57,418 bases of DNA from Candidatus Woesebacteria bacterium RIFCSPHIGHO2_01_FULL_38_10 (GCA_001792215.1 MGGC01000040.1:3653-61070), one strand, 5' to 3'. Positions 6,608 through 57,418 are shown, counted from the stretch's first letter. Notes: generated by a model not told the origin, from the letters alone. Made by a program: numbers and translations.

Positions 6608-6620
6608 AAAGATAGAAGTA

Positions 6621-7919: not shown

Positions 7920-7929
7920 AATAAGTATA

Positions 7930-18289: not shown

Positions 18290-18335
18290 ATCCAGGCAGG
18301 CAATTATACAACTATATAACAAACTTGAGCATTCT

Positions 18336-28829: not shown

Positions 28830-28849
28830 AAACTAATTCGTACTTTCTT

Positions 28850-29772: not shown

Positions 29773-30078
29773 ACATATATTTATATAAACTAAGTAGACT
29801 GTGCAAACTGTCTCGAAGCTACCTGAAAAACTTCTCCATCAACAAGCCAATTGTAGACCGTTGAAATGCTTTAGTGCAAGAAAATTTAAAGTATTTTGGG
29901 CATAAAGACATTTTCACAACCTGAGTAATCTTTTTATACTTAACAAACTCGAGTTTGTAATTACAAACGAGAGTTTTTGAATATACACAAGTGCCTTAAG
30001 ATACTGCAAATTCAAGTAAGACAGGTATATTAACTCTCTTTCACGACAGGAAGTTTTTTAGAATCACAAATGTCTTAA

Positions 30079-34073: not shown

Positions 34074-34820
34074 TCACTTTCTCTGCCTCTCCCAAACTTT
34101 AATCCAGTTAGTAATCCTGTAAATTGCCATCATGTAAGAGAGAACAAAACCCCGCCAGCCGTCTAAGTACCCACGCTTGTAAATAAAACGCCTGAAGAAA
34201 GAAAGGGCAGGATCAAAAAACATCTTAAAGATTGAAAAAATCTCTCCTCTTTCAATCTTTTCTCCGGCTTCTTCTTCTGTATATTTATTTATCATCAAAA
34301 AAAATTCACCAACCGTCTTATACTGAAAATGAACTTTTGTGTGTTTCAATCTTCCCACACTTCCATCTACTTTAACCTCAGCGTGTACCCCTCCCTCAAA
34401 CCTTCCTCTATCTTTTCGGTATAACCACACATGTTCATCCGGCGACCAGCGTGTGTGCTTAATTTCTTTTCCCAAGATTATGTTTCGACGAGGGATTAAG
34501 TAACCTACAAATTTGTCTGTCTTCACGGCATTTACAACCTCACCAGCTAGTCTTCCGGTCATAACTTCGTCAGCATCCAAGGAAAATACCCAGTTGTTCT
34601 TTGCTTTATCTGCGGCAAAATTTTTCTGATTGGAAAAATTATCGAATTTTCGGTAAAAGACTCTGGCACCAAACTTTTTTGCTATTTCGACAGTCTTATC
34701 TATACTCCCCGAATCTACAATGACAATCTCGTTTGCAAATTTCTTAATAGAATCAAGACAACGAGCTAGATTTTCCTCTTCATTTAACGTAACCAATGTT
34801 ACTGATATTTCCATTCTCAA
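34074..34820 (-). CDS. GT2 glycosyltransferase
   Basis: 248 aa. VTLVTLNEEENL, IVIVDSGSIDKT, SLDADE. Confidence 0.8.
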   Translation of the reverse strand: MRMEISVTLVTLNEEENLARCLDSIKKFANEIVIVDSGSIDKTVEIAKKFGARVFYRKFDNFSNQKNFAADKAKNNWVFSLDADEVMTGRLAGEVVNAVKTDKFVGYLIPRRNIILGKEIKHTRWSPDEHVWLYRKDRGRFEGGVHAEVKVDGSVGRLKHTKVHFQYKTVGEFFLMINKYTEEEAGEKIERGEIFSIFKMFFDPALSFFRRFIYKRGYLDGWRGFVLSYMMAIYRITNWIKVWERQRK

Positions 34821-35512
34821 CTTGAACCGAGAGTTAATTTCGTAATAGAACCTTCTCGCTTTCCTGAAAACCTACTCCACCAGAAAGCAACAAAAACACT
34901 GTAGACAAGTATCAAAAATAAATAAGCTACTTTTATGAGGATTGACTGCTTTGGGAAAAAAGCCAAAGAAACATAAAACGTATTAATAATAATTCGTGTA
35001 ATAAGAATTACCGTAATAAATTCGCGGTAAGACATTCGAGTAAACCCAGCCGCATAACTTGCTAAGTCTTGAACCGGAAGAAACGAGACGACCAAAAATC
35101 CCCTCCACTCTCCCAAATAGTGGTAAAGCTTATCTATTATTCTCAGGGATCTTTTTCCAGTCAGGCGTAAGGCTACCTTCCTACCTAGTTTCCTGGCAAT
35201 CAAAAAACAAATTGTACTGCCAAAAAGATCACCTATAAATGTTATTAAAAAGGCCCCAAAAAAACCATAAAGTAGAGCGGTTAAAATATAAATGGGACCT
35301 CCACTAAGTGGGGCAAGAACAAGGGTCAAAGACTTCATTAGTATTATCAACAAAGGACCGTAAACGCCCGCTCTTTCAACTAATTCAGAAAGCTTTCCTT
35401 CTCCAATCACTCCAAATCCTAGCCAATAGGAAAGAAGTGTAAATAAAAGTAAAAATATAAACCCTCCCAAAAATCCTAAAACATATTTTATATCTATTTT
35501 TTTAGGTCTCAT
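34817..35512 (-). CDS. DedA/TVP38-TMEM64 (VTT domain) family membrane protein
   Basis: 231 aa. APLSGGPIYILTALLYGFFGAFLITFIGDLFGSTICFLIARKLGR pattern. Confidence 0.65.
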   Translation of the reverse strand: MRPKKIDIKYVLGFLGGFIFLLLFTLLSYWLGFGVIGEGKLSELVERAGVYGPLLIILMKSLTLVLAPLSGGPIYILTALLYGFFGAFLITFIGDLFGSTICFLIARKLGRKVALRLTGKRSLRIIDKLYHYLGEWRGFLVVSFLPVQDLASYAAGFTRMSYREFITVILITRIIINTFYVSLAFFPKQSILIKVAYLFLILVYSVFVAFWWSRFSGKREGSITKLTLGSS

Positions 35513-36663: not shown

Positions 36664-37365
36664 TCAGTCCACAAACCTATACTTAATTAACGTCCACAAT
36701 GCAATAAACCCATCTCTCCACGATATCTTTTTGCCATCACTATAACTTCGGGGTTTAACTTCAATAGGAATTTCACAAATTCTCTCGCCCGCTTTTAACA
36801 ACTTTGCGGTTATTTCTGGTTCAAATTCAAACCGCTTGGCTTTGATCTCTATGTCATCAAGAACAACTCTCTTAAAAACTTTATAACAGGTTTCCATATC
36901 GGTTATACTTGATCCAAATAATAAATTTGTTATGAAAGTTAAAGTCTTGTTTCCAATGTAATGAGTAATCAAAGGAGTCTTTCCCTTTCCGAATAACCTA
37001 AAAGGATAATTTACCAATCTACTTCCGTATACAACCTTTGTTTTCCCTTCAACTATCGGTTTTAACAACCGAGCATAGTCAGAAGGATTGTATTCCAAAT
37101 CTGCGTCCTGAATCAGGACAATATCGCCAGATGAATTTTTAATTCCGTTTCTAACGGCCGACCCTTTGCCTTTATTGACTTTATGGCTGATAAGCTTAAT
37201 GCCTTTTTGTTTCTTAAGAATCTTGGCGGTTCTATCACTAGATGCGTCATCAACCACGACTATTTCCTTCTCGACACTTACAAGCTTTTCTTTTTTAACC
37301 CTATTAATAACCTCGCCAACAGTCTTTTCCTCGTTATAAACCGGTATAATTATGGATAATTTCAT
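36664..37365 (-). CDS. GT2 polyprenyl-phosphate glycosyltransferase (Dpm1/GtrB-like)
   Basis: MKLSIIIPVYNEE, VVVDDASSDRT, IQDADLEY. The ATG at 37365 forms an ATGA overlap with the upstream methyltransferase stop. The track start at 37416 adds 17 unlikely residues. Confidence 0.85.
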   Translation of the reverse strand: MKLSIIIPVYNEEKTVGEVINRVKKEKLVSVEKEIVVVDDASSDRTAKILKKQKGIKLISHKVNKGKGSAVRNGIKNSSGDIVLIQDADLEYNPSDYARLLKPIVEGKTKVVYGSRLVNYPFRLFGKGKTPLITHYIGNKTLTFITNLLFGSSITDMETCYKVFKRVVLDDIEIKAKRFEFEPEITAKLLKAGERICEIPIEVKPRSYSDGKKISWRDGFIALWTLIKYRFVD

Positions 37366-38060
37366 TTCTTTTCCCCCACTGCCAAAACTGAAAGTCCCAT
37401 GGGTAGTTTGATACACTCTTCCAGAAAAAGGAAGGGCTTTGAGATAACATTAAAAATCCTTAATTGGTTTTGGCTGATAACTTTCTTCCTAAACACCTTA
37501 GAACTCAAAAACCAGCCCCAAAGCCCTATAAAATTCAAATAACGTATTAAGCTTATCCTAAAACCTGTTTTTCCTAATTTAACCTTAAGATCTTTTTTTG
37601 AATATCGCGTAATATGTCCCAACTCTCGGTCAAGGGTTCCAAAAACCCATTGGTGGGCAGGTACCAATAATAAAAGTTTTCCCCCTTTTTTAAGTAAAGC
37701 GTAAGTATTTTTTAATGCCTTTGCATCATCTTTTACATGCTCTAAAACATTAAGACAAATTATGCAATCAAATCTTTTCCTTTTTCCAAAAAAATACTCT
37801 CCTTTTGCTATATCTCCATAACCAACCGATACATCTTTTGCAAATCTTTTCGTCAACTTCTTTAGGTAATATCTGTCATAATCTATAGCCGTAAGAGCGC
37901 CCCTTTTTTTAAGTAAACAAGTAAAATTCCCGATCCCTGACCCCACTTCGAGCATCTCGCCTCCAAGATATGAATAAATTAATGAAAAAAGCCACTGGTT
38001 ATACCAACCAGCTTCTCTCATTATCCCCAGAGTATATTCGCCCGGCGAATCCATTTCCAA
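37362..38060 (-). CDS. Class I SAM-dependent methyltransferase
   Basis: 232 aa. Motif I MLEVGSGIGNFT, then DCIICLNVLEHV. Confidence 0.8.
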   Translation of the reverse strand: MEMDSPGEYTLGIMREAGWYNQWLFSLIYSYLGGEMLEVGSGIGNFTCLLKKRGALTAIDYDRYYLKKLTKRFAKDVSVGYGDIAKGEYFFGKRKRFDCIICLNVLEHVKDDAKALKNTYALLKKGGKLLLLVPAHQWVFGTLDRELGHITRYSKKDLKVKLGKTGFRISLIRYLNFIGLWGWFLSSKVFRKKVISQNQLRIFNVISKPFLFLEECIKLPMGLSVLAVGEKK

Positions 38061-40070: not shown

Positions 40071-40868
40071 TCACTTTTGCAAAACCAAAACCAGGTGAGG
40101 ACCCCAAAGGGTGAATGGAAAGATTCCCTTTTCAGCCAAAAATCTAAACAATCTTTGCTGAATTTTAACATCTTTCTTTTCTTCTTCCCAACACACCGAC
40201 CAGACTTTAACAGAAAGTCCAAAGGATTTTGAAAAAGGAATAAGAGTTCCAATGTACGGCTCTATGCTGGTGTCATAGTCCGACTCATGCTCTTTTGGAT
40301 TCTCCATCGGCTGGACTTCATTCCAAAGAAGTGAGAATGAATTCGAAAACGGATAAACTAAATCGCCCAATAAACCCTTAAAGAACTTGCTAACCCTTGA
40401 TCCTTTGAAAACCGGCGATGCTCTGTTTGGAGCGCCATAATTCGGCGCTGCAAAAACCAGGTAACCGCCCTTTCTAGTAACTCGAATCGCCTCTCTTATT
40501 ACTTTCTCGGGATTTGTAAGATGTTCCAGCACAAATGCGCAATAAACTAAATCGAAACTGTCATCTTCAAAAGGCAGGTTCTCAAGATTGGCTCTTTTGA
40601 AGGTTAAATTAGAATAAGTTCTTCTGGCTAAACCGATCGCAGTCCTGCTGATGTCAACCCCCACCCCCTTTTTCCCTTTAGCAATAATCGAAAGCCTTGT
40701 TCCTTCCCCGCAGCCCAAGTCAAGAATGCAGGAAGAATTTTCTGCAAGCTTTTCCAGCACTTTGATTCCGAAGTGACTCTTGTTTAAGCTCCCTTCCTTG
40801 GCAAGCTGATAATAATATTTACTTTTCCATACCTTCAAAGCTTTGCCCTTAATATCCTGTCCTCTCAT
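40071..40868 (-). CDS. Class I SAM-dependent methyltransferase
   Basis: 265 aa. ILDLGCGEGT, FDLVYCAFVLEHL, KGGYLVF. Confidence 0.8.
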   Translation of the reverse strand: MRGQDIKGKALKVWKSKYYYQLAKEGSLNKSHFGIKVLEKLAENSSCILDLGCGEGTRLSIIAKGKKGVGVDISRTAIGLARRTYSNLTFKRANLENLPFEDDSFDLVYCAFVLEHLTNPEKVIREAIRVTRKGGYLVFAAPNYGAPNRASPVFKGSRVSKFFKGLLGDLVYPFSNSFSLLWNEVQPMENPKEHESDYDTSIEPYIGTLIPFSKSFGLSVKVWSVCWEEEKKDVKIQQRLFRFLAEKGIFPFTLWGPHLVLVLQK

Positions 40869-41730
40869 ATTTAAAGATCCTCCTTTTTATTAACTTTAAC
40901 GGCCACTCTATGTAAGACCTTAGTTTATATTCTTTCGACCTTCTTTCCCAAGGCGAAGGGACAATATCGGGTTTTGGCCTGAAAAAGACCTCCGGATAGT
41001 AAAAATCATGTGGAAAGTTTATTCCCAAATCGAACTTAAACTTGACATCTCTTTTTGGTACATAAAGATCGTTTTGTCGGGTAGAAGAGCGTATAACATT
41101 TGTGAAATGCAAATATCCCAACCCCAGATGTTTTCTTTCTTTTGCTGGTCGATTTTGTATCAAGACTCCGCCCTTATCATAAAGGCCAAGTTGACCGTGT
41201 GGTTTGTCAAAATGAAGGCCTTTAATTTTTCTATTTACTGCTCTTATATTAAGATGTCCTCTAAGACCATCTATTTCGTACATTCCAGCAACTTCTTCCT
41301 GGTAATGGTAGATGTCTCCAATAATATTGGAATACCTATTTACTATCGATTCGACTCTGTTCCCATTTTTACGGATAGTCTCTACCAGTAATGATATTGC
41401 AGAATCCCACCAAACCTCGTCTCCATCAACTATCACAAACCAATCAGCTTCTGTTTTAGCAAGCATCTCTTGCCTAGCTTTAGTGAAAGATCTAATATCC
41501 ACCTCACCAAATTCTCGAAAATCGATCTTATCAGGATACAATTTTCTAATCTCATTAATTATTTGAACAGTATTATCTGTGCTGCCTGTATCCCAAATTA
41601 AAATCCGATCTAGATGTTCAATAACACTCATTACTGAAAACCAGATATAGCGCTCTTCGTTTTTAACTAAGGTATTTGCCCAAATTTTCATCTGTCGATA
41701 GCCTTTTAGTTTGATTTTGTTTTTGTACAA
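40849..41730 (-). CDS. GT2-like glycosyltransferase
   Basis: 293 aa. LVKNEERYI...IWDTGSTDNT...IVDGDEVW. The start is probably the ATG at 41691 (MKIWANT). Confidence 0.65.
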   Translation of the reverse strand: MYKNKIKLKGYRQMKIWANTLVKNEERYIWFSVMSVIEHLDRILIWDTGSTDNTVQIINEIRKLYPDKIDFREFGEVDIRSFTKARQEMLAKTEADWFVIVDGDEVWWDSAISLLVETIRKNGNRVESIVNRYSNIIGDIYHYQEEVAGMYEIDGLRGHLNIRAVNRKIKGLHFDKPHGQLGLYDKGGVLIQNRPAKERKHLGLGYLHFTNVIRSSTRQNDLYVPKRDVKFKFDLGINFPHDFYYPEVFFRPKPDIVPSPWERRSKEYKLRSYIEWPLKLIKRRIFKYERTGY

Positions 41731-43016
41731 ATCTTTCTCAACACCCAGATTAATGGAACTATAAAATTAAATATCTGTCCCAGCAAAACTGTTATTGCAG
41801 CACCGGTTGTGCCATTCACTGAAATCAGATTCCAGCCTAAAAATCCCACTAAAATCATATTAGTGATTGACAGATAAAAGAAGAACTTAGGATAGGAAAA
41901 ATAATAAATGATGGCCATGTGAACCGGAACAGAAATAAGAAGGACAAGCATCCCAAAAAACAAAATTAGAAAGGGAGTCGTTGATCCCAGATAGGCTTTT
42001 CCATAAATAAGGGGTAAAAGTTGTGTGGCAAAGGGGACAAAGAATAGAGCGAGTATTGCTATTCCTAAAACCATAATCTGAACCTTTTTCATATATTTGA
42101 CTAGCTCGCCGATTGTTGACAATCCTGCCATCCTTGGTGCAACAACAGTTGAAATTGCAGCTACGCACTGGGGCACTATTTGAACTAATTGAACTGCCGC
42201 AGAGTAGATACCAACATCAGTTGCGCTTAAAAGCCGGGCAGATATAAAAGTATCCAGTCTTGCGCCAATTGCGCTAGCAATTGAAAAAAGAGCCACCCAT
42301 TTGTTATAAGCGAAAAAGTCTTTGACAATACTTCCTTCGTTTTTCACCTTCCAAAATTTAACGGAAAGTAAATTTAATCCAACCAAAAATCCCATAAATG
42401 GCACAAGTGTATAAACTAATAGGGCATTTTTTAATCCTAAAATTCCCAGACTTATAAATAGAAAAACGATGAAAAGTCTCAAAAAATTAGTTCCAATTTG
42501 GATCAGACTCCATTGGATAAATTTTTGAAAAGCCTGCAAACTTGAAATTACAAAACTGAAAAGAAGATACGAACCTACCCCGACAAACGCAATCTTTAAA
42601 GGTGCTGCCAAACCCTCTTCTGAAAAAAGCAAATCTGCCAGATCTGAACTTCCCAAAAAACCAAAAATTAAGACTAGACAGATAACTCCTAACTTAACTT
42701 TTAACCCTAATTTCAGAAACCGTTCTGCCTTTTCTAAATTCTGACTTGCGTACTTACCCACAAATTTCACAATGCCTGTATTCGTACCCAAATCGCCGAT
42801 GTCTCCGACCAAAGTAAGAGTTGTAATTGCCACTATCATTAATCCAAAGTCCGAAGGCCCCAAATAACGCGCAGTAACAATATAAAAGATTGCGCCCAAT
42901 CCTCCATTTATCAAAGTTCCTACTGAAGTGATTACCGACTGTCTAAAAGTCGCTGTTGCAAAAACACCTGAAGCAAAACTATATGCCGGAATTCTTGTAA
43001 ATGCTTTCTTTATCAC
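41706..43016 (-). CDS. wzx: Wzx-like oligosaccharide flippase (MOP superfamily polysaccharide biosynthesis protein)
   Basis: 436 aa, ~12-14 TM segments. N-terminal TARYLGPSDFG motif. Confidence 0.7.
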   Translation of the reverse strand: MIKKAFTRIPAYSFASGVFATATFRQSVITSVGTLINGGLGAIFYIVTARYLGPSDFGLMIVAITTLTLVGDIGDLGTNTGIVKFVGKYASQNLEKAERFLKLGLKVKLGVICLVLIFGFLGSSDLADLLFSEEGLAAPLKIAFVGVGSYLLFSFVISSLQAFQKFIQWSLIQIGTNFLRLFIVFLFISLGILGLKNALLVYTLVPFMGFLVGLNLLSVKFWKVKNEGSIVKDFFAYNKWVALFSIASAIGARLDTFISARLLSATDVGIYSAAVQLVQIVPQCVAAISTVVAPRMAGLSTIGELVKYMKKVQIMVLGIAILALFFVPFATQLLPLIYGKAYLGSTTPFLILFFGMLVLLISVPVHMAIIYYFSYPKFFFYLSITNMILVGFLGWNLISVNGTTGAAITVLLGQIFNFIVPLIWVLRKICTKTKSN

Positions 43017-43444: not shown

Positions 43445-46330
43445 TTATAAACTATGCTTCGTGATATTTTTCCTTTGGAGCAAAACTAGCAAGGTAAAAA
43501 TTGAAACTAAAGTTACCGCACTTATAACAAGTCCGGGGAGGACGTATCTTTGGGGCTCGAAGTAGATATCATACTCCCCATCTTCTTCAATCACGAATCC
43601 GTTAATCAGGGAATAAAGGGGGAATGAATTATGAACTTGCTTTTCATTCGTTCCAGCCCCGGAGAGTCTATTCAGCCATCCCGGAGGCGTTTTTTCTGAA
43701 TCGGTCTTAGCTATCATCCATAACGGGTCATAGGTTTCAGAAAAAGCAAGTGTTACTGGATTAGTTACGCCCTTCACTTCAACTTTATAATGTGTCGAGT
43801 TAAGCTTTTCATGTCGGACAGTCGGACCTTTTTCAATCTCAGAAAATAGTACAATCTTATTTTCATCAGTCAGATCATCCCATCTTACAATGTCGCTTTG
43901 ACTGATCAGCTCATCAAAATGGGAAAGCTCGTTCCTGCTAACAACAGCTAACGCGTTTACGATGTTTATATTACCTTCAGTTTTAATAATTATTTCATCA
44001 TCTTGCTTGACCTTCAGATTCCCGCCTGTCAAATTTCCCACCTCAAACCATCTAAACTCAGCCTTTTCATACTCAAAATACTGATCAGAAATTTTGCCAT
44101 ATCCTGTTAGTTTTATAGCAACTTTCTCGGGATCTTCGACCAACGTATCAATTTCCCCAATCTTTTTATCGCTCTGCCAAAATTCAACCTTTCCAGCCTG
44201 TTTACTTCTAATAACTCGAGCAAGAAGAATGTCACCTTCCGAAAATTGAAAAGTGGAAATTGAAAATTCGTAATTTCCCTCAGAAATTGCCCATCCACCT
44301 CCGTAATCAAAATCCTGATTATCGATTCCATATTTTGTTTGCAAAAAATCTCTAAACCAGACAAAATCAGACGCATCCCTTTTCCACCAATTCGGGGATC
44401 CTGAGCTCGTCGAAGGACTGTAATTCAGAAATGATGCAGGAAATATATACCTACTTTTATCAATAAAACTAGCAATTAAATCAACTTCAGTCTTTTCATA
44501 AAGTAAATATGTACAAGGAAAATCCTTGTGCGCTGCACTCATGCCAGGATATTCCTCCAGAAAAATCAGTGAATTTTCCGATAGTTCAAAATCAGGTAGT
44601 TTAACTAATTCTTTATAAATATCATCTGACCCAACAATACAAAAGCTTTCTTTCGAGAGAAAAAAATGATCTTTGGACTTTTTGGTTTTTAAAAGCGCTA
44701 AAGGCGGGTCAAATATTCTCTCCTCAACCCAAGGTAAATCGGTAAGTTGATTTAAAAAAGTGTAGTAATAGTCAATACTGTCTTGCTTTAGCTCTTCTTT
44801 CCTTACATCAGGGTAGGGATAAGCAATATAGCCGACGGCCGCTATATCCAATAGTTCTCCCATGAAAGTTGACTCGCGCAAATAGTTGTGCTGTTCATAA
44901 CTACCGACCCTGGCAACAGCAAATGGTCTTTTTTCGGAAATCAAATACCCCAACGCCTGGGGATGAAGGGGACTGGAAAAAGCCAAGGGGGTGCTTCCGG
45001 GAATCCATAAAACTCTTCCGAAACCTATGTCCCTTTCAAGAAAATTATTAACTTCTTTATGCTCTTTCTGATAGACAGGATTTGAAAACAGACCAGTCAT
45101 TTTACCGGTGTAGACAGGGAAGATGAGAAGTAGGAGATAAAAGGTAAAAAATAAAGGGATTGTCTTAAACGACCAACGACTAATAACCAATGACCAATTA
45201 AACTTCTTGGTCAACTCATCAACAGCAACACCGATGAGAAATGAATAAGAAAGAACTATTAAAAAGAAAAACTTTGTTGGATCCCTAAAAAGTAGAAATC
45301 CTGGAACATTATCAATAATCCAGGGATACAAAGAAGCGAAGGGGGGGTTAGCCCCTTTTGCTAAAAACAAAGATAGTATCGCCACAACCAAGTAAAATCC
45401 GATATTTTTATCTTTCTTTCTTAGAATGGGGGCAGAAAACGCAAATACAGGAAGCAAAACAAAAATCGGACTTACATGTTCTAACTTTCCGAATACGTTT
45501 TTGTACCAATGCGGCTGAAATAAATAAAGTGCGTGGCTTAAACTGGTATAAGTTTGAAAATCGCCCGATAGCGATTTCAGGTAACTTTCAGGGATAACAC
45601 CAACTCCTGTTTTTAATGACGGATATATCCAGTAAAAATGAAAACCCGTAAGAAAAATAAAAGATAGAACTGCAATAAAAAAAGCATTTTTAATAAGGAT
45701 AAATTTCTTCTCTTTTTTTAAAACTAAGAAACCGTAAAAAAAATAGATTACTGCAAAAAAAACAAAAAGAAAGACTATTCTAAGGTCAAATATCGAAAGG
45801 GTTATTAAAAAAAAAGTAAACTTCAAAACACTACCAAGCGAATAATCGTTTATTAATTTAATGAATAAAACTGAAACCATTGGAAAAACAGCGTAAGCTA
45901 AAGAAATAAATAACTGCCCCCCATCAATAAGGAGAAGTACGTAAGTATTAAGTAAGAAGACAAAACTACCAACGGTTATCCCATACTTTCTAACACCAAA
46001 GTAACTCAAAAACTTAGCTATCGAATAAGAAGAAAGTATAATAAACGGAATAATGAAAACTATCCTGGAAAGAAAAGAAAAACTAAGACCAACTTTTGTC
46101 AAAAACGCCAGAAGAAAAATTATTGGCCAGGCCCAAGCCGTAGAGACTACGTTATACCCCATCCCGTCAGCTCCGAGAGTATTTCTCCAGAGTTGAGGAA
46201 AATTAAAAGCCGAAATTAACTCCTGAGGATACCAATATATAAAATCAGTTGCGACTTTGGTACCCGGATTCCAAAGCATCCAAAATACAATCAATAAAAG
46301 AAGGACTGTAACTTTTATACTTCTATTCAT
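43445..46330 (-). CDS. Giant polytopic membrane protein with large extracytoplasmic domain and C-terminal TM anchor (GT-C-like, YfhO/DUF3367-type architecture)
   Basis: 961 aa. ~14 N-terminal hydrophobic segments, ~500-aa soluble region, terminal TM LVISAVTLVSIFTLLVLL. Shares NVPGFLLFRDPTKFFFLIVLSYSFLIG with RVPGFSILRTPFYKFGVIVWFSYSFLIA in the 54314.. protein. Confidence 0.8.
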   Translation of the reverse strand: MNRSIKVTVLLLLIVFWMLWNPGTKVATDFIYWYPQELISAFNFPQLWRNTLGADGMGYNVVSTAWAWPIIFLLAFLTKVGLSFSFLSRIVFIIPFIILSSYSIAKFLSYFGVRKYGITVGSFVFLLNTYVLLLIDGGQLFISLAYAVFPMVSVLFIKLINDYSLGSVLKFTFFLITLSIFDLRIVFLFVFFAVIYFFYGFLVLKKEKKFILIKNAFFIAVLSFIFLTGFHFYWIYPSLKTGVGVIPESYLKSLSGDFQTYTSLSHALYLFQPHWYKNVFGKLEHVSPIFVLLPVFAFSAPILRKKDKNIGFYLVVAILSLFLAKGANPPFASLYPWIIDNVPGFLLFRDPTKFFFLIVLSYSFLIGVAVDELTKKFNWSLVISRWSFKTIPLFFTFYLLLLIFPVYTGKMTGLFSNPVYQKEHKEVNNFLERDIGFGRVLWIPGSTPLAFSSPLHPQALGYLISEKRPFAVARVGSYEQHNYLRESTFMGELLDIAAVGYIAYPYPDVRKEELKQDSIDYYYTFLNQLTDLPWVEERIFDPPLALLKTKKSKDHFFLSKESFCIVGSDDIYKELVKLPDFELSENSLIFLEEYPGMSAAHKDFPCTYLLYEKTEVDLIASFIDKSRYIFPASFLNYSPSTSSGSPNWWKRDASDFVWFRDFLQTKYGIDNQDFDYGGGWAISEGNYEFSISTFQFSEGDILLARVIRSKQAGKVEFWQSDKKIGEIDTLVEDPEKVAIKLTGYGKISDQYFEYEKAEFRWFEVGNLTGGNLKVKQDDEIIIKTEGNINIVNALAVVSRNELSHFDELISQSDIVRWDDLTDENKIVLFSEIEKGPTVRHEKLNSTHYKVEVKGVTNPVTLAFSETYDPLWMIAKTDSEKTPPGWLNRLSGAGTNEKQVHNSFPLYSLINGFVIEEDGEYDIYFEPQRYVLPGLVISAVTLVSIFTLLVLLQRKNITKHSL

Positions 46331-46494
46331 CGAAGTTTATGGATATATATCCCTGTACCTACTAAAATCAACAAAAAACAAATAGTGGCCAATTCAGAAG
46401 AAAAACCCCGGTGTCCCAAAACGGAAGAGAGAGAAGATAATATAACTACCATAATTCCTAAACCAAAAAAAATATTGATATAAATATCTTTCAT
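46327..46494 (-). CDS. Unannotated 55-aa two-TM micro-protein, translationally coupled to the 961-aa gene
   Basis: Hand translation gives MKDIYINIFFGLGIMVVILSSLSSVLGHRGFSSELATICFLLILVGTGIYIHKLR. Its TGA (46329..46327) overlaps the ATG (46330..46328) of the next gene as ATGA. It is below the 60-aa track cutoff. Confidence 0.5.
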   Translation of the reverse strand: MKDIYINIFFGLGIMVVILSSLSSVLGHRGFSSELATICFLLILVGTGIYIHKLR

Positions 46495-47612: not shown

Positions 47613-49952
47613 TTAACTCGATTCAAACAAATCTGGATGTGTATTTCCTACAAAGTTTCTTCTGTAAAGACCATAAGTTAAAGACAATGCAATTAAAAAA
47701 AGAATCGACCCGGCATAAAAACTCCTGGGAACATATTGCATGACAATAACATGATCGCCTGGCCGATCAATAACAACGCCTTTTACAAGACTGTCTGCCA
47801 TGTAACTGTTCACCTTATTCCCGTTTAAAAAAACTTTCCAATTTCTGTCAAATGTATTGCTGTAAATAAAAAATCCCTTATGATCGGTTCTAAAAATGGA
47901 TTTCATAAAACCCGGTTCTTCAACAAATTCAGAAAACTCAAAACCTGACTTTTTTATATCTCTTATACGATAATCATTTGAGTCTTTAATCACTTTACCA
48001 CCATTTGCTTTGTAGGTCGTTATTAGATCGTCAACATACGTCTGATTACGAATTAGGGGGTCATTGAGAATCAACACATCAAACATCTTTAATTCTTCCA
48101 ATGTATAGTCATCAAGATACGGGCTTTGTCCACTGAATACCGACTGTTCCATCGGAATAAATTCCTCGCTATAGATAATCTTCCTAGCCAGATTAGAGTT
48201 AAATTTGTCTTTCTCTTGTTTTCCGACAATTAAGGACCCATTAGTAACGAAGTAAGGACGATCTCGAGTTTTTAACATCTCAAAAACAAAAACTGGATTT
48301 TCGTTTACGCTTCCGCCCTCGTTTATCACTCTAACTTTCGACACAAACTTGGGGTTATTATAAGTTTCCTGCTCTTTCTCCCAGATAAATAAGTACTTTG
48401 TGTTAAGAATCGAGAATGTTTTGAAATTATTTTCCCAAGGCGTACCTTTACTAATAGTGGAATAGAAATAAGGCGACGTTGGTCTGTAATATGGGCCAAT
48501 TGAATCAAGATTATCCCTATTTACCGACTCATAAGTGTAAAAGTTAAGCCCGGGTGATTCATACCCTAAAATCGCCCTATAAGGATCACTATTGTTGGAT
48601 TTGGACGCTGAGAACAACGTCACGTTCGAACTTGAATATTCTGTGAACTCAGTTTCTTCAATAAAAAACTGCGCTTGGTCAATAAATATACGAAGTGGGG
48701 GAATAATTAGTACAAAAAAAACAATCGTCAATATATTTAAATATCTTATTTTTCTCATCCAGTTGACAAAAAAATTAAGGCCTAAACAAAAAAGTAAGGG
48801 TAAAACGAAATAGACGTTTATTAAGAAACGGATCGTATAATGTGCAGACTTGAAAAAAGGCACAAGGTAATAAAAGAGAGAATAGAAATCAATTGGAATT
48901 GAAGAGCCAAAAGATGCCAACAGTGAAACCAAAAAAACAATAAAAATGGGAAAAGTAATCTTTAGTCTTTTTCGATCAAACAAAGACGCCAAAGAAAAAA
49001 GATAAAGACTAACATGGAAACCTTTAAATATGTTATTGATCTTTCTAGTTGACTCTATCTTAAGAAAAAATTCCTGTGTCAGTTTACTTATTATCGTTTG
49101 ATAATATTTGGGAGTTACATCGGCCTCGGCTGACTCAAGGCTAAGATCTTTTCTTAGTGAATCACTTAAAGATTCTTGTACTGGAAGTAGTTTGGGAGCA
49201 GAAAAAATAAATGCAAAGATTATAAAAGTAACGAACAACTTACTCAGTCCCAACAAATAATTAAGGTTTCTTGTTTTAGAATTGTTAATCAAATTAAACG
49301 CCAAATAAGATAAAAAAAATATTCCTAATGCAACTGCCGCATAAGTTGTATTATATAAAGCCCCACCATGAATCAACATTGAAAAAACAAATCCCAAAAA
49401 CGCTGTGAATATGTACTTTCTTGTTATTAACATTTCTATAAAAAGTAATAAAATTAGTGGAAACCAAGCAATCATAATCAAGTCGGAACGAAAACCGTTT
49501 TGAAATATTAAACTTGTCTCAGTGTTATACAGATAAAAAAAAGAACCAACAGTCGCTACGATTATATTCACTTTTAGTAATTTAGTTAAAAGAAGAAAGA
49601 AAAATGCTCCCAGAAAATAGTGTATAAAAAAGGAGATTCGAGTCGCATAAAGTTGATCCCTAAAAGGGAAATTTATTAAGTAGGTCAAAGGGTAGGTTTG
49701 TGGATATGAAGGATTGCCTATTGCAGAGCTTCCCGACCCAAGTTTATTGTCCCATAACAATATTTTATGTTTTTCTATAAAATATTGTCTTATTTTTGCA
49801 ATAGGATATGTTTCAAACACAATCGACTCACCAATTGTGTATCGAGTATCATCTGTTATCAGCCTTGAATATATAGCCGAAGTCACTATTAGAGCAATAG
49901 AAGCATAAACAAAGTATATCCATAAGTATTTACTAAATTTAAGCAGTTTCAT
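47613..49952 (-). CDS. Giant polytopic membrane protein (YfhO-like architecture), possibly distantly related to the 961- and >1026-aa proteins
   Basis: 779 aa. ~13 hydrophobic segments, ~330-aa soluble domain, C-terminal TM GSILFLIALSLTYGLY. ATGA overlap with the upstream methyltransferase gene. Confidence 0.75.
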   Translation of the reverse strand: MKLLKFSKYLWIYFVYASIALIVTSAIYSRLITDDTRYTIGESIVFETYPIAKIRQYFIEKHKILLWDNKLGSGSSAIGNPSYPQTYPLTYLINFPFRDQLYATRISFFIHYFLGAFFFLLLTKLLKVNIIVATVGSFFYLYNTETSLIFQNGFRSDLIMIAWFPLILLLFIEMLITRKYIFTAFLGFVFSMLIHGGALYNTTYAAVALGIFFLSYLAFNLINNSKTRNLNYLLGLSKLFVTFIIFAFIFSAPKLLPVQESLSDSLRKDLSLESAEADVTPKYYQTIISKLTQEFFLKIESTRKINNIFKGFHVSLYLFSLASLFDRKRLKITFPIFIVFLVSLLASFGSSIPIDFYSLFYYLVPFFKSAHYTIRFLINVYFVLPLLFCLGLNFFVNWMRKIRYLNILTIVFFVLIIPPLRIFIDQAQFFIEETEFTEYSSSNVTLFSASKSNNSDPYRAILGYESPGLNFYTYESVNRDNLDSIGPYYRPTSPYFYSTISKGTPWENNFKTFSILNTKYLFIWEKEQETYNNPKFVSKVRVINEGGSVNENPVFVFEMLKTRDRPYFVTNGSLIVGKQEKDKFNSNLARKIIYSEEFIPMEQSVFSGQSPYLDDYTLEELKMFDVLILNDPLIRNQTYVDDLITTYKANGGKVIKDSNDYRIRDIKKSGFEFSEFVEEPGFMKSIFRTDHKGFFIYSNTFDRNWKVFLNGNKVNSYMADSLVKGVVIDRPGDHVIVMQYVPRSFYAGSILFLIALSLTYGLYRRNFVGNTHPDLFESS

Positions 49953-52005: not shown

Positions 52006-53129
52006 TTTAGGAAAGGAAGCAGATTTTCTCTATACATCAAGTTCCAATCAAACTTTTCCACATACTCTTTAGCGTTTTTGCTTAAGGTTTTTATTAGATT
52101 CTTGTTTTTTGAAAACTTCTGCATGGCTTCAAATAGCTGACGCTTACTATTGTAAACATAACCCAACTTATATTTCCGGACGTCTCCAGAAATCTCCGGA
52201 ACGCTAGATATAATAACCGGCATTCCGCAAGCAAGATATTCTTTAACTTTAAGAGGGCTTGCGTACTTAGTCCAACCTTCAGACTCGTTATATGAAGCAA
52301 TACCAACCCCACCGTTCTTTACTAAAAATCTTAGGGCCTTGTCGTGTTCCAATCTTCCTAGAAGATATACCCTATTTTCAAGATTGTTTTCTTTAACAAA
52401 AGTTCTAATTTTTTCTTCCTTGCTTCCTGTTCCCAAAAATGCAAGTTTCACTCTCCTGAAACTTTTAGCTATTTTGCTAAATACATGCAAAAGCTCAATC
52501 ACACCATGGGTTTCAGATAAAGTTCCAAGATAAACAAAGTCGAAGATGATTCTTTTTTTAAGTCTAGGAATAAGACCTAAGTCAACTCCGTTTGGTATCA
52601 CCAACGATTTTCGTTTGTTGAGGCCTAATGAGATTCTTCTTTCTTCTGCTCTTTTAGTATTACTGATAACTAAATCGGAAATTCTTAAGGCTACCAGTTC
52701 AACCATTCTATATACGATATTCATAATAGAATTTTTGAATCTTTCATCAGCATAGTCTGATCCGTAATAAATAACGCGTTTTATCTTCCAACCCTTAAAA
52801 AAAATAGCTGGAAAAGTATCAAAGTTATCAAGGCCAATATAGTTATCAACTTTCCCGCAAGTTGTAGCAATTTCATATATGGTGATCAGTGCATTTCTAA
52901 ATAATCGTACAACCGTTTCTCCCTTTTTCTTGTAATTTTTCACTGTTTTAGATTTTTTCATATTCGAATACTGCTCTACAACCGTTTCTTCCAACTTAGT
53001 TCCAAGCATCGGGTGAAAGACAACTTTTATATATGTGTCAGGAATTGCTACCAAAAAATCCCTAAGATGCTGTCCCGGACCCACAATTTCGCTTACATGT
53101 CCAACCAACAAAGTCTTTTTTGTGTTCAT
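52002..53129 (-). CDS. GT4 glycosyltransferase
   Basis: 375 aa. C-terminal ASPLKVKEYLACGMPVIIS. ATGA overlaps on both sides. Confidence 0.75.
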   Translation of the reverse strand: MNTKKTLLVGHVSEIVGPGQHLRDFLVAIPDTYIKVVFHPMLGTKLEETVVEQYSNMKKSKTVKNYKKKGETVVRLFRNALITIYEIATTCGKVDNYIGLDNFDTFPAIFFKGWKIKRVIYYGSDYADERFKNSIMNIVYRMVELVALRISDLVISNTKRAEERRISLGLNKRKSLVIPNGVDLGLIPRLKKRIIFDFVYLGTLSETHGVIELLHVFSKIAKSFRRVKLAFLGTGSKEEKIRTFVKENNLENRVYLLGRLEHDKALRFLVKNGGVGIASYNESEGWTKYASPLKVKEYLACGMPVIISSVPEISGDVRKYKLGYVYNSKRQLFEAMQKFSKNKNLIKTLSKNAKEYVEKFDWNLMYRENLLPFLK

Positions 53130-53980
53130 AGGCCTAAAATTCCTTTCAATCTCGCCATCGCTAAACCGAAAACCACAGCCATAAGTTCAACAGATTTCAT
53201 AATAATAAGGCCCATGCCCAATATTGGATACTTTACAAACTTATTAACATTCCTAAAGTAAGCAGGTCTAAAAAGTGTATTCGCTTGTTTGAATGCGTGG
53301 TCTCTATGCTTGGAGATAAAAACACCTACTGTTTTTCCGTAAAAATACTTTTTTTTCATTGTTTTAAGTAAACTTAACTTTCCCTCATTATGATAGACAG
53401 GAGATTTGATCCTCCCGATTTTATAGCCGGCCTCTTTTACTTTTAGATGAATGTCTTTGTCCTCAGATGCAACCATAGTTTTATCGTGACCACCCACGTC
53501 CCAATAAGCTTTCTTCGAAAAAAACCTCGCCGATTCCATCAGATCGTCTCCAATATACAATGACCTCTCAAAAGCTTTAACCTTTGCCCAAAAACCCTCC
53601 CCATATGAAACTTCAGAAATAATAAGGGCGTCATAACCTTTTTTCATTTTTTCAACACACTCTCCCAAAACCTTGGGGTGTAAAGACATGTCCGCATCAA
53701 GATGGTAAAGATCATCTCCTTTTGCAACTTTCGCTCCTTCCCTTCGACCTTGAGCCATCATTTTGTTTTTTTTGATATAGTTTATTTCTAATTTTTTGGA
53801 ATAGTCCTTAATAACTTTTGGTGTGTCATCAGAAGTCGATAAGTCATCATTAATAATAACTTCAAAGTTTTTGTAGGTTTGGAGAGTCAAAGACTTAAAA
53901 AACAGTTTCAAATGCTCTCCTGCATTTTTAGTAGGAATTATCAATGAAATTAAAATGGCTTTCATAAGATGATCTTTCAA
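53126..53980 (-). CDS. GT2 glycosyltransferase
   Basis: 284 aa. ISLIIPTKN, INDDLSTSDDT, HLDADM. Confidence 0.8.
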   Translation of the reverse strand: MKDHLMKAILISLIIPTKNAGEHLKLFFKSLTLQTYKNFEVIINDDLSTSDDTPKVIKDYSKKLEINYIKKNKMMAQGRREGAKVAKGDDLYHLDADMSLHPKVLGECVEKMKKGYDALIISEVSYGEGFWAKVKAFERSLYIGDDLMESARFFSKKAYWDVGGHDKTMVASEDKDIHLKVKEAGYKIGRIKSPVYHNEGKLSLLKTMKKKYFYGKTVGVFISKHRDHAFKQANTLFRPAYFRNVNKFVKYPILGMGLIIMKSVELMAVVFGLAMARLKGILGL

Positions 53981-54357
53981 AAACTATCTTTTTCAGAAAG
54001 AATAAACGTAATAACAGCAGTTAACAATAATACGTACAATAAACTCCCCAAGAATTCATAACTCTGGGAACCCAGAAAGGTAAAAAGCGGCATTGTAATA
54101 ATAAAAGCAAGAATCACCTTTGTCTGCAAAAAGTGATTAATTCTAAAAAAAAATATACCTACCATCCATACAAGCAATATCTTTACGAAAAAATTTTGCA
54201 CAAGAAGATTTACATAGGGAAGTTCTGTAACAATATTAAATATAAAAAAGAGAACAATAAGTTGCATGAGGATTTCTAACGATCTTTTCCTTATAACTCT
54301 TTTGATATTTTTCTCAATTTTTGGCAGCATAGGATTTTCTTCTAAAGTAAAGAACAA
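53977..54357 (-). CDS. Small polytopic membrane protein (about 100-126 aa, start uncertain)
   Basis: 3-4 hydrophobic segments. Lies between the giant membrane protein gene and a GT2 gene, with overlapping junctions. Confidence 0.45.
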   Translation of the reverse strand: MFFTLEENPMLPKIEKNIKRVIRKRSLEILMQLIVLFFIFNIVTELPYVNLLVQNFFVKILLVWMVGIFFFRINHFLQTKVILAFIITMPLFTFLGSQSYEFLGSLLYVLLLTAVITFILSEKDSF

Positions 54358-57300
54358 AAATTACAATTGGCAGAATTACTAAACTTATTCCGCTTGCTAG
54401 CGCCCCTCTGTAAAAAAGAATCTGAGGTTCATATTCAACAATAAAGTTTGTCTCTTTTCCTTCCAACACCCACGAATTGTTATATCCATTATTAAGAAAG
54501 TGGCTTAATTCAGATGTATCGCGTTTACGATTAATCAAGTCAAGAAGATTTACCTCGGGATTTAATCCATATTCTTCTGTGTTATAGCTACTACCTAAAA
54601 TAAACTTCTCGTCAAACACTGCCTCCAGGTCTTTTATATCAACTGGTCTCAACTTCCAACCGTCATCAAACCGTTGACCAAAATTAAGAAAAGATGTATT
54701 TGTGTTCCCTTTTATCGATACAAGGTATTTTGTTTGGTTTATTCGAATAAACTTTATTTCTTGTGACAAGGGAGTTTTTCTCTCACTTGCAGAAATAAAA
54801 AACACATCTGGTCTGCTTTTTCCAATAACTTCTAATCCATCGACCTTTACCAGAGAATTTTCAATACTATTCGAATTAACACAAAACTTAAGTTTAAACT
54901 TTTGTGTATATTTATCAGGTTGAAATTCTGCCTCAAACCTGCTCCATGAAGAGTCTCTTTTTAAAAGGGAATTGACACGGTAGGTCGGGCGTTTGTTTAA
55001 GTTTATGGTATCTACGTCTTGTTCAACCAGAAAACGTATTATTGGTTCTCCAATTTCAGTTCGATAAAGAAATGACACTTTATATTTTATATCTGAACTC
55101 AAATCATTCATTTCAAAATCCCGACAGGTGAGACTACTTTGGGAAGAAAGCAGATCAAACTGAGACGGAACGGAATGTTGAAGTAAAACCGTTTCTTCAA
55201 AAGGAATCTTAATTTTGTGGGTCCCTTTTTCAAACCAAATTTTGCCAAAACTCATCCACTCATCGGCTGTTTTTGTTACCTTTGTTGCAACTTCACCTTG
55301 ATCTATGGTAATAACTTGTGAATCAGGATAGGAAGAAACAAAATTTTTGTTGAAATAAAGCATAATTTGATATTCGGCGGGAAACGGAATGTTAACATCA
55401 AAAGAATGTTTATCTATAATTTCCTCTTTTTCCCTAGGAATTGATAGACTGGCAAGTCTCCACTGTAAATCCAAAAACTTTGACTTAAGATCTTGACTGT
55501 CAGTCGACTGCTCCCAGGTGATAAGATTTCTGTCATTATATTTGTAGTAGGATGAGACCCTGTTAATGTAAAAGTTTTGTCGTTGTTGATCAGGAATAGA
55601 ATAAATTAGAGCAGCTATTTTAGCAAAATTTTCATAAATATCTTCAAGAATAATTATAATAAGAGCAGGTTCCTTTTTCTGTTTTAGTATTCCTTGAATT
55701 AGCACCTGTTTTTTTAGTACATTTCCCAGCAGGTAGTCTATATGTTGCTCGGGGTTGGGAAACATAACCTCTTTTCTTTCTTCCCGAATAGCCTCTAGAT
55801 AATACAAGAATCGGGAATTGGGCAAAATGCGCATGCGGGGCGTTTCAACAACTGTCTGAATTGGAAAACATAAAGTACAAATACCTTTAACAACATTGTT
55901 AGTGACATACTTTTGCGGTAATTCGTACTTAAGCATAGATTCTGTTATAAAAAATGAGTCCAGAAGTTCTATCTGGGGATTACCCACAATTTTGTTAAAA
56001 TCGGCCATAGAAATATCAAGAAAGCTATTTTGGGACGACAGATAAAAAAGTGGGTAAGGTTCTTGTTCTTTAAATTTGTAGACAATCCATTTTTCAAACT
56101 CCTTAATTTTTTCAAATTTTGAATTGTCCTCTATCGAATTTATAATTTTTTGTGGACTATACGACCCATTCGCGGAAGCCGAAAAATCTTTCCTGACTAA
56201 AATATAGTGAATCCCTAAATATTTGGCGATATCAAAGTTCTTGTTAAATCCCAAATCATCATAGAGCGTTCTTACCAGCTCTTGTTCACTTCCTTTTAAA
56301 TAGGCGTCGTTTGCAACTACCGATTTGTTAGTAAGAATTGTAGGGATAGTAGATAAGCTAAAATATCTCCAATCATAGATTTCATATCTTGTATTCGGAT
56401 CAATATCGGGGGCAAGAAGAACCCTTTTACTTGAACCAGAAGTCTCATCAATCCACTTTTTAAAATCAAACAAATAGTTTGGGACTTGAAGCATTGTGGA
56501 GTAACTTTTTGACCAATGAAAAAATCCTCCAGTAAAGTAAGGATAATTATACAAAGACCATATAGCTATAAAGAGCATAAACCCTGACAGAGCTAAAAAA
56601 CGTTGAATCTTAAATATAATACGAACTTTTTTTAAACTATTGACTATATGAAAGAGTGTATAAGCAATGAGAAAGGAATAGGAAAACCATACAATAACTC
56701 CGAACTTATAAAATGGAGTTCGGAGGATTGAAAAGCCAGGGACACGGAGCAATAGCAAATCATAGATAATACCACTTGGCCTATGACTACCCGCAGCAAA
56801 AAATATTCCAACTAAACAAAGAAGAGTAAAAAAAACAACGTAAACTTTGTCTTTGTTTGAAGAAGTCTTTCGCAAGAACAAAAAAGACGAGAATGCCAAA
56901 AACGGCCAAAGAAAACTTAAAAATACAAATAAAGGGTTATAGAGAAAAGTCTTAGAGTACGGATGTTCCAAGTTATCATACCAATCAGGTATCCCTTGCA
57001 ATCTAAAAAGATTAGTAAAACTAGTGTTTTTGCTAATCTCCCGACTCCAGGAAATCGCCCCCTCTACACCCCCTGCCGCTCCAACCCGGGAGGCAAAGCT
57101 CTGAGAGAAATAAAGGAAAAGAGGCACAATCCAATAAAGATTTAGAAAAATAAATGATATTAATGCTGCCAGAGAAAAAATCAGAGCTCGCACAATTTTT
57201 CTAAATATATTCTTTCTATTTGCCCGTAGCAGAGTAAAATAGGAAACTGCAAAACCAGCCACAATTCCCAAACCAGCGTAAAAAGGTATACCTGGACCTG

Positions 57301-57418
57301 CATTAAAGAAAAATAGTGTTAAACCTACCAACAATGCATTTATGAGAAAAGACCGTCCCTCAGAAAGGGCGCTTATTGTGAAAAGAGTTATCAAGGGTAA
57401 AGAAACCGCTGCTGAAAA
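54314..57418 (-). CDS. Giant polytopic membrane protein (GT-C-like, DUF3367/AftD-type architecture), 5'-truncated by the window edge
   Basis: The frame stays open from the track start (TTG at 57394) to position 57418, so the N-terminus probably lies outside the window. More than 1026 aa, with multiple TM segments, a ~650-aa soluble domain and a terminal TM ISLVILPIVIFVLYF. Paralogous to the 43445..46330 protein. Confidence 0.8.
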   Translation of the reverse strand, partial: FSAAVSLPLITLFTISALSEGRSFLINALLVGLTLFFFNAGPGIPFYAGLGIVAGFAVSYFTLLRANRKNIFRKIVRALIFSLAALISFIFLNLYWIVPLFLYFSQSFASRVGAAGGVEGAISWSREISKNTSFTNLFRLQGIPDWYDNLEHPYSKTFLYNPLFVFLSFLWPFLAFSSFLFLRKTSSNKDKVYVVFFTLLCLVGIFFAAGSHRPSGIIYDLLLLRVPGFSILRTPFYKFGVIVWFSYSFLIAYTLFHIVNSLKKVRIIFKIQRFLALSGFMLFIAIWSLYNYPYFTGGFFHWSKSYSTMLQVPNYLFDFKKWIDETSGSSKRVLLAPDIDPNTRYEIYDWRYFSLSTIPTILTNKSVVANDAYLKGSEQELVRTLYDDLGFNKNFDIAKYLGIHYILVRKDFSASANGSYSPQKIINSIEDNSKFEKIKEFEKWIVYKFKEQEPYPLFYLSSQNSFLDISMADFNKIVGNPQIELLDSFFITESMLKYELPQKYVTNNVVKGICTLCFPIQTVVETPRMRILPNSRFLYYLEAIREERKEVMFPNPEQHIDYLLGNVLKKQVLIQGILKQKKEPALIIIILEDIYENFAKIAALIYSIPDQQRQNFYINRVSSYYKYNDRNLITWEQSTDSQDLKSKFLDLQWRLASLSIPREKEEIIDKHSFDVNIPFPAEYQIMLYFNKNFVSSYPDSQVITIDQGEVATKVTKTADEWMSFGKIWFEKGTHKIKIPFEETVLLQHSVPSQFDLLSSQSSLTCRDFEMNDLSSDIKYKVSFLYRTEIGEPIIRFLVEQDVDTINLNKRPTYRVNSLLKRDSSWSRFEAEFQPDKYTQKFKLKFCVNSNSIENSLVKVDGLEVIGKSRPDVFFISASERKTPLSQEIKFIRINQTKYLVSIKGNTNTSFLNFGQRFDDGWKLRPVDIKDLEAVFDEKFILGSSYNTEEYGLNPEVNLLDLINRKRDTSELSHFLNNGYNNSWVLEGKETNFIVEYEPQILFYRGALASGISLVILPIVIFVLYFRRKSYAAKN

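Follow-up and report, generated by a model that had tools for sequence, protein, structure and literature searches.

Bacteria of the candidate phyla radiation (CPR), or Patescibacteria, depend on surface contact with their hosts, and almost nothing is known about their envelope. A stretch of 57,418 nucleotides from Candidatus Woesebacteria bacterium RIFCSPHIGHO2_01_FULL_38_10 (GCA_001792215.1, MGGC01000040.1:3653-61070), here called the window and meant at its full length, encodes three giant membrane proteins, A, B and C. The locus raises the question of what such proteins do at the cell surface, and whether they are peculiar to one genome. An earlier reading, made from the sequence alone, had proposed that the three share one architecture, that two of them are paralogues, and that all act outward as transferases. 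Our results favor a wider kinship and a more specific assignment. We consider it likely that A, B and C are diverged paralogues in the AftD/YfhO branch of the GT-C glycosyltransferases, which would act outside the cytoplasmic membrane and use polyprenyl-phosphate sugars to build up a surface glycan exported by Wzx.

Kinship of the three proteins

The three open reading frames (ORFs) are present with the sizes given in the sequence-only reading, all on the minus strand (Table 1). The C-terminal strings and the two loop motifs quoted there are found verbatim in the translations, the strings having been listed in the order B, A, C and not by size. The missing N-terminus of A was recovered from MGHD01000022.1 (GCA_001793025.1), which is the same contig and gives a full length of 1184 residues; a look-up of a neighbouring gene in public assemblies also found the contig in three metagenome assemblies. 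The soluble domains, put at 330-650 residues, were computed at about 320 (C), 520 (B) and 720 (A) residues.

Family profiles were built from 37 relatives of A, 33 of B, and first 4 and later 37 of C. With composition-adjusted BLASTP, A matched B at E 7e-12 across 206 residues in the loop and transmembrane (TM) region and at 5e-4 at the C-terminus, and profile-profile alignment with hhalign joined the two across 545 columns (100%, E 6.5e-49), the overall identity between the families being only 16%. B matched C at 1e-6 across 313 residues in BLASTP and at E 5e-23 (99.5%) in hhalign when C was represented by 4 relatives; the deeper profile of C raised this to 99.9% and E 1e-32 across about 714 columns, nearly the full length including the C-terminal segment. 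Between A and C, BLASTP gave no significant match and hhalign gave 97.5% and E 8e-12. Judged by these alignments, A, B and C are all homologous. The paralogy of A and B is thereby confirmed, its restriction to two proteins is not, and the status of C as a third paralogue is new at the descriptive level.

It could be argued that the likeness reflects hydrophobic composition and similar length, not common origin, and the missing BLASTP match of A with C would fit such a view. We give it a negligible chance, since the BLASTP values for A/B and B/C had been adjusted for composition, the hhalign similarity exceeds what TM composition would give and reaches into the soluble domains, and the families have invariant motifs in common. 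The profile-profile alignments refute it.

Fold and structural models

The AlphaFold2 model of B (pLDDT 89.2, pTM 0.87) was compared with the PDB using Foldseek. Three AftD entries solved by electron cryomicroscopy came first (E 2.4e-13 to 7.8e-11, TM-scores 0.47-0.50), 6w98 being matched at E 2.4e-13 with a TM-score of 0.49 on the query, and STT3, PglB and AftA followed at TM-scores of 0.29-0.34. The fold of A was read from the AlphaFold2 model of its orthologue P0001 (pLDDT 85.0, pTM 0.79), for which AftD (6wby) again ranked first, at E 2.8e-18, before AftA and ArnT. Both models match solved GT-C enzymes in fold, and the proposal of GT-C-like, outward-acting transferases with a shared architecture is supported; each of the checks named with that proposal gave a favourable result. 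For the B family, which has no Pfam domain, the predicted fold is a new assignment. The outer domain of B matched CBM6 modules, that is, carbohydrate-binding modules (CBMs), and other beta-sandwich proteins.

With a hidden Markov model (HMM) of the A family, three collinear matches to AftD were obtained. One directly follows TM1, another covers the soluble GT-C domain, and a third comprises the final beta segment and the re-entry TM helix. This third match is the beta-rich segment running straight into a single TM helix that the sequence-only reading had noticed, and this combination is common to AftD, where the helix is TM12, and YfhO. In A, a TM domain is joined by the soluble GT-C domain and by a helical bundle, whose counterpart in relatives is DUF5667-like, and beta-sandwich domains and the C-terminal TM helix complete the protein.

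Topology and candidate active-site residues

Positive-inside analysis of 33 B-family sequences found lysine and arginine enriched at both termini and in loops 204-209, 304-309 and 371-389; loop 1, residues 231-291 and 325-351 and the domain of about 480 residues are poor in them or acidic. The C-terminal tails of A, B and C are likewise rich in these residues (RRKSYAAKN, QRKNITKHSL and YRRNF). The charge distribution thus predicts the large domain to lie outside, and a cytoplasmic placement is not supported. A crude hydropathy count, which yields an even number of helices ahead of the outer domain of B, conflicts with this topology; one of the helices is probably juxtamembrane or broken, as in AftD.

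An acidic residue was expected in the first extracytoplasmic loop, as in GT-C enzymes, and was found there. It is D38 in A, within a GHD motif conserved in 37 of 37 relatives, and D29 in B, and it is less strict in C, where E42 occurs in two and D43 in two of four relatives. Full-length A starts with a lysine-rich N-terminus and a TM helix, followed by the loop ALGHDMGFPLAPVDHF. The first loop of the A family aligns with residues 45-100 of AftD, directly after the essential D41, with a register uncertain by one to three residues. The best conserved piece is a second loop, P-G-F-x-x-F-R-x-P-x-K-F, whose arginine and lysine are invariant in both families (37/37 for A and 33/33 for B). In A these are R383 and K388, accompanied by the equally invariant F379 and F389; in B, R349 and K353 are invariant together with D350 and F354. 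The corresponding loop of C reads P..[HR]...[RK]F. The B family thereby gains named candidate residues for mutation.

Other conserved positions lie in the outer domains. Residues 673-680 of B, DFDYGGGW, are near-invariant and lie about 270 residues past the last N-terminal TM helix. The A family has a nearly invariant CxxC pair (residues 664 and 667 in locus L001) and further conserved cysteines, where the B family has almost none; the pair may be a disulfide or a metal site.

A conserved cassette in Microgenomates

When one genome for each GTDB species was scanned with a 10-sequence B-family alignment, 60 loci were retrieved. Those with a named lineage all belong to Microgenomates-type CPR (Woese-, Davies-, Ames-, Blackburn- and Roizmanbacteria) or to the "Patescibacteria group". 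Two of the 60 loci are from complete chromosomes, 0.81 and 0.92 Mb in size. Many other loci, L013 and L015-L018 among them, come from metagenome-assembled genomes titled "uncultured Gammaproteobacteria bacterium" (binchicken/SRP co-assemblies) or "bacterium"; the former label looks like a bulk placeholder and not a true taxonomy.

Gene order around B is strongly conserved. In 49 of 54 loci Wzx lies no more than 4 kb downstream of B and in the same orientation, in 47 loci the same GT2 gene comes after Wzx, and in 30 of 45 an A-family gene precedes B in the same orientation. The full order, seen in L008-L010, is A, small TM protein, micro-ORF, B, Wzx, GT2 and, optionally, a methyltransferase gene. 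This order is ancestral; in the window it is interrupted by an insert comprising GT2, GT4, GT2, a methyltransferase, C and another methyltransferase. The cassette with its two small membrane partners is newly described here. The sequence-only reading had spoken of an unusually heavy investment in such genes for a reduced genome. In proportion this holds, with about 42 kb of glycan genes and complete genomes of 0.8-0.9 Mb in the lineage. As an oddity of one genome it does not, because the same cassette occurs in about 60 Microgenomates species genomes, which makes it a lineage trait.

The first small partner, a protein of 117 residues, appears to be translationally coupled to A. It carries the conserved motifs PYxN, FR and LG..Y..L and matched neither Pfam nor NCBIfam; it is not recognisably a GtrA-type flippase, to which a functional analogy is nevertheless conceivable. 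Homologues lie directly 3' of A-family genes in three independent loci (L005:11593-11892, L006:11396-11773 and L007:11278-11613). With an iterated HMM, a homologue was found ahead of B and in its orientation in 33 of 54 related loci, all 34 matches being on the gene strand. The association of this protein with A-family GT-C genes is conserved across Microgenomates. The second partner is a micro-ORF of 55 residues ahead of B, which is annotated as a gene in L002 and L003. ORFs of 55-65 residues with the pattern [NG]H.GF[AS] end at the start of B in 22 of 58 related loci, compared with 1.4% of random windows, and their loop resembles the invariant GHDxGFP of the first loop in the A family. From these results it could be hypothesized that the cassette is a Microgenomates-specific machine for an envelope polymer, in which A and B each have a dedicated small subunit and the micro-protein loop could supply in trans a part of the outer active site that is missing from B. 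We regard this extension as doubtful and put it forward tentatively.

The conserved position of Wzx immediately after B also bears on another explanation, namely that B, and perhaps A as well, would be a GT-C protein of the oligosaccharyltransferase or ligase-like sort that moves a whole Wzx-flipped, lipid-diphosphate-linked oligosaccharide onto protein, lipid or peptidoglycan, as PglB, STT3 and AglB do. STT3 and PglB are significant fold matches of B (E 1e-4 to 5e-3), and the DFDYGGGW segment loosely resembles the WWDYG motif of oligosaccharyltransferases. We nevertheless find this role unlikely. No oligosaccharyltransferase comes near AftD as a structural match, WWDYG is membrane-proximal whereas DFDYGGGW is remote from the last TM helix, the window encodes a separate protein of the Wzy_C/O-antigen-ligase type, and the CBM6-like modules suggest a polysaccharide acceptor.

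Family assignment and proposed function

The trio spans the AftD/YfhO branch of GT-C, and none of the three fits a curated family cleanly. C scores 32.4 bits on PTPS_related (PF10131, GT-C clan; gathering cut-off 26.4), where its residues 607-666 align with model positions 475-534. Whole C gave no match to YfhO (PF09586, gathering cut-off 28.5 bits), and its last 128 residues reached 19.6 bits, below the cut-off, on positions 773-834 of that 835-position model. An exhaustive search found 822 relatives of C; among 37 that were aligned, 19 match YfhO (best 3.4e-29) and 11 PTPS_related. The A orthologue P0001 scores 25.0 bits on GT-C_AftD (PF11847, cut-off 26), and many of the more distant A-family relatives carry PF11847, DUF5667 or both in a precomputed table. 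None of 69 B homologues has a Pfam domain. The sole curated match of B is NCBIfam MmpA (NF053599), at 45.8 bits with a cut-off of 210, over residues 290-452, a region that takes in the last TM pair as well as the PGF..R..K loop. Against PDB sequences, phmmer found no match for A, B or C; the B and C profiles retrieved nothing relevant, and the A profile alone reached AftD, weakly. In the literature searched on GT-C, arabinofuranosyltransferase, glycosyltransferase or DUF3367 proteins of CPR, Patescibacteria or Woesebacteria we found no description of these proteins.

The assignment should be interpreted with some caution, since several points weigh against it. The matches to curated models are weak overall: A itself reaches 15.7-16 bits on PF11847, under the cut-off, B has no Pfam match, and the PTPS_related match of C is limited to 60 residues of the soluble domain. 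The model used for A is that of an orthologue 45-49% identical to it, not of the window protein, and C is placed in the fold by its hhalign matches to B and A, not by a model of its own. Global TM-scores to AftD are just 0.44-0.50 with a large root-mean-square deviation, as is expected for multidomain proteins that differ in domain content. The candidate polyprenyl-phosphate sugar synthase lies 6-17 kb away and scores below curated cut-offs, and no GtrA-type flippase was recognised, the 117-residue protein and three homologues having no Pfam match even at E<=10. Finally, the fold alone is no proof of catalysis, as MmpA illustrates, being homologous to the N-terminal domain of AftD and having no recognised catalytic function (PMC8698533).

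MmpA, as the only curated match of B, also suggests that one or more of the three could be a non-catalytic GT-C scaffold or lipid-handling protein, which would organise an envelope-assembly complex with small TM partners; that A and B both have dedicated small membrane partners suggests complexes. Such a role seems to us improbable. The MmpA score is far under the family cut-off, the outer-loop aspartate and the R/K loop have stayed invariant across families otherwise so diverged, a pattern typical of an active site, and the large CBM-like domains argue for binding of a glycan substrate.

We return to A, B and C as extracytoplasmic glycosyltransferases. The analysis shows their homology, fold, predicted topology, conserved residues and gene order. 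Each protein is predicted to have its N-terminus inside the cell, a polytopic membrane domain of some 11-12 helices (about 9-10 in C) and a putative active site on outer-face loops, formed by the acidic residue that follows TM1 together with the PGF..R..K loop, which precedes the last TM pair. The extracytoplasmic domain combines an alpha/beta "soluble GT-C" module with beta-sandwich, CBM-like modules, and its final beta-strand leads into the single C-terminal TM helix, returning the chain to the cytoplasm. Catalytic activity, donor, acceptor and sugar we infer as follows. Cytoplasmic GT2 and GT4 enzymes, with the Bac_transf phosphoglycosyltransferase as the starting point, would assemble an oligosaccharide on a lipid carrier, and the Wzx beside B would export it. 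A GT2 enzyme of the AglJ/ArnC type would make polyprenyl-phosphate monosaccharide donors. Outside the membrane, A, B and C together with three PMT_2 proteins would then move single sugars from the lipid donors onto the growing glycan, and the CBM-like modules of A, B and C may hold the acceptor polymer, as in AftD.

The surrounding glycan genes

From about 15.6 kb to its end, nearly every gene of the window is glycan-related, and the island extends beyond the window. It holds about nine GT2, seven GT4 and five methyltransferase genes, besides genes for a DUF4012 protein, a mannose-1-phosphate guanylyltransferase-like nucleotidyltransferase (NTP transferase), a hexapeptide acyltransferase and an asparagine synthase. 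The three PMT/ArnT-like proteins named in the sequence-only reading have PMT_2 or TMEM260-like matches. Its count of six outward-acting candidates stands and can be extended by a seventh, the Wzy_C/O-antigen-ligase-like polytopic protein.

Table 1. Features of the window discussed in the text (positions counted from its first nucleotide).
Feature	Position	Strand	Remarks
Protein A	54314..57418	-	cut N-terminally by window end; 1034 of 1184 residues inside window
A, C-terminal TM helix	about 54344..54400	-	
A, loop motif VPGFSILRTPFYKF	56702..56740	-	residues 376-389 of full-length protein
117-residue protein	53977..54330	-	4 predicted TM helices; start overlaps end of A
GT2 glycosyltransferase next to A	53126..53965	-	279 residues; one C-terminal hydrophobic helix
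Protein C	47613..49952	-	779 residues; about 9-10 TM helices; outer domain of about 320 residues
C, C-terminal TM helix	about 47667..47723	-	
Micro-ORF	46327..46494	-	55 residues; two hydrophobic helices; GHRGFS loop; overlaps B start by 4 nucleotides
Protein B	43445..46330	-	961 residues; TM domain 1-406, outer domain 407-924
B, D29 codon	46244..46246	-	candidate catalytic Asp in first outer loop; conserved in 32/33
B, loop motif PGFLLFRDPTKF	45269..45304	-	residues 343-354
B, C-terminal TM helix	about 43478..43534	-	
Wzx/MOP-type flippase (Polysacc_synt)	41706..43016	-	conserved downstream neighbour of B
GT2 glycosyltransferase	40849..41730	-	conserved after Wzx
GT2 most like polyprenyl-phosphate sugar synthases (AglJ, PpgS, ArnC, Dol-P-hexose transferase)	36664..37416	-	all matches under curated cut-offs
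DedA/VTT-domain membrane protein	34817..35512	-	adjoins two PMT_2 GT-C genes
PMT_2/ArnT-like GT-C proteins (other two)	31160..32566; 32566..34068		
Wzy_C/O-antigen-ligase-like polytopic protein	25387..26826		
PMT_2/ArnT-like GT-C protein	23940..25403	-	one of three
Bac_transf phosphoglycosyltransferase	17636..18355		

Judged by its closest sequence relatives, the GT2 protein at 36664..37416 is a candidate for the enzyme that supplies the GT-C proteins with their lipid-linked donor. This GT2 and the DedA/VTT protein are indirect evidence that a polyprenyl-phosphate-linked sugar may be used. Together with the DedA/VTT protein and two PMT_2 genes it looks like a second, more classical lipid-donor/GT-C module. 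A three-component (GtrA/GtrB/GT-C) extracytoplasmic glycosylation system would have a membrane-anchored GT-A synthase of polyprenyl-phosphate sugars beside the GT-C gene. The best matches of the GT2 protein next to A are generic GT2 enzymes, with DPMS and the GtrB-like sll0501 among the weaker ones, and the GT2 most like such a synthase (36664..37416) is not adjacent.

Within the island, 1.25 kb (28830..30078) lack any ORF of more than 100 residues. Rfam and tRNA scans of the whole window gave no match, so this region is not a known RNA. A minus-strand segment in it (29109..29522) is 29% identical over 138 residues (E 1.4e-5) to the neighbouring GT4 protein (30079..31176), and the region is probably a decayed GT4 pseudogene. 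The first 10 kb of the window contain peptidoglycan genes, all those mentioned here lying on the minus strand. Two are apparent fusions: 339..2879 (846 residues) joins MurB domains to a MurD-like Mur ligase, and 4322..6649 (775 residues) joins a Mur ligase to a C-terminal NTP_transferase domain. The ORFs for MurA (EPSP_synthase fold, 6621..8213) and a penicillin-binding protein transpeptidase (7930..9642) overlap by 284 nucleotides; the true start of MurA is probably downstream of the listed TTG, since the Pfam match begins at residue 106.

Beyond this window, Microgenomates genomes of less than 1 Mb retain a conserved cassette in which a Wzx flippase and small membrane partners accompany two GT-C enzymes of the AftD kind; the window adds a YfhO-like third copy (C) and three PMT_2 enzymes. 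The finding suggests that assembling an elaborate glycopolymer outside the membrane belongs to the core traits of the lineage.

Comparison with known systems

PMT_2/ArnT-type enzymes share with A, B and C the fold at superfamily level, ArnT being a weak fold match, and the logic of a lipid-linked donor. The PMT_2 proteins are just 468-500 residues long, however, and have neither a large outer domain nor a C-terminal re-entry helix; a pairwise relation to A, B or C was neither looked for nor noticed. MmpA (NCgl2761/Rv0226c) is reported to resemble the N-terminal 668 residues of AftD, and no transferase activity has been demonstrated for it (PMC8698533). Unlike B, it has only about 470-540 residues and no CBM domains, and it is restricted to Corynebacterineae.

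Among GT-C enzymes, YfhO has been characterised as part of multi-component systems that glycosylate teichoic acids, and its expected donor is a polyprenyl-phosphate sugar (PMC8035078). Systems of the YfhO/PTPS_related kind modify lipoteichoic and wall teichoic acids with N-acetylglucosamine in Bacillus, Staphylococcus and Listeria. C has the same layout of TM domain, outer domain and C-terminal TM helix, with its C-terminal beta-plus-TM segment aligning to the last positions of the YfhO model. It differs in scoring under the YfhO cut-off and in its CPR host. Of the other parts of a YfhO-type system, we recognised neither an adjacent CsbB-like GT2 with paired TM helices nor a GtrA/GtcA flippase.

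AftD (PDB 6W98/6WBX/6WBY; PF11847, formerly DUF3367) is the top structural match of both models. Its structure comprises an 11-TM GT-C superdomain, a periplasmic alpha/beta domain, three CBMs and a beta-sandwich, with re-entry via TM12, and its essential residues are K39, D41, E251, K361 and D474 (bioRxiv 10.1101/2019.12.22.885152). The window proteins resemble it in the N-terminal GT-C membrane superdomain, the periplasmic alpha/beta domain and the beta-sandwich carbohydrate-binding modules, of which those of B are CBM6-like. They further share an acidic residue and an aromatic, proline-rich segment right after TM1, and a last beta segment that leads straight into the re-entry helix. Sequence identity is only about 10-12%, however, and the window proteins are 230-630 residues shorter. 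They end 9-17 residues past the single C-terminal TM helix and so have no counterpart of the TM13-16 bundle, the site of the mutant R1389 in acyl carrier protein binding, and A bears a five-helix bundle as an insert. The host, moreover, is a CPR bacterium without arabinogalactan, and the sugar and the acceptor must consequently differ from those of AftD.

In conclusion, the comparison reveals no new kind of system and no new mechanism; A, B and C belong to a known enzyme class, of which they make up an uncharacterised branch.

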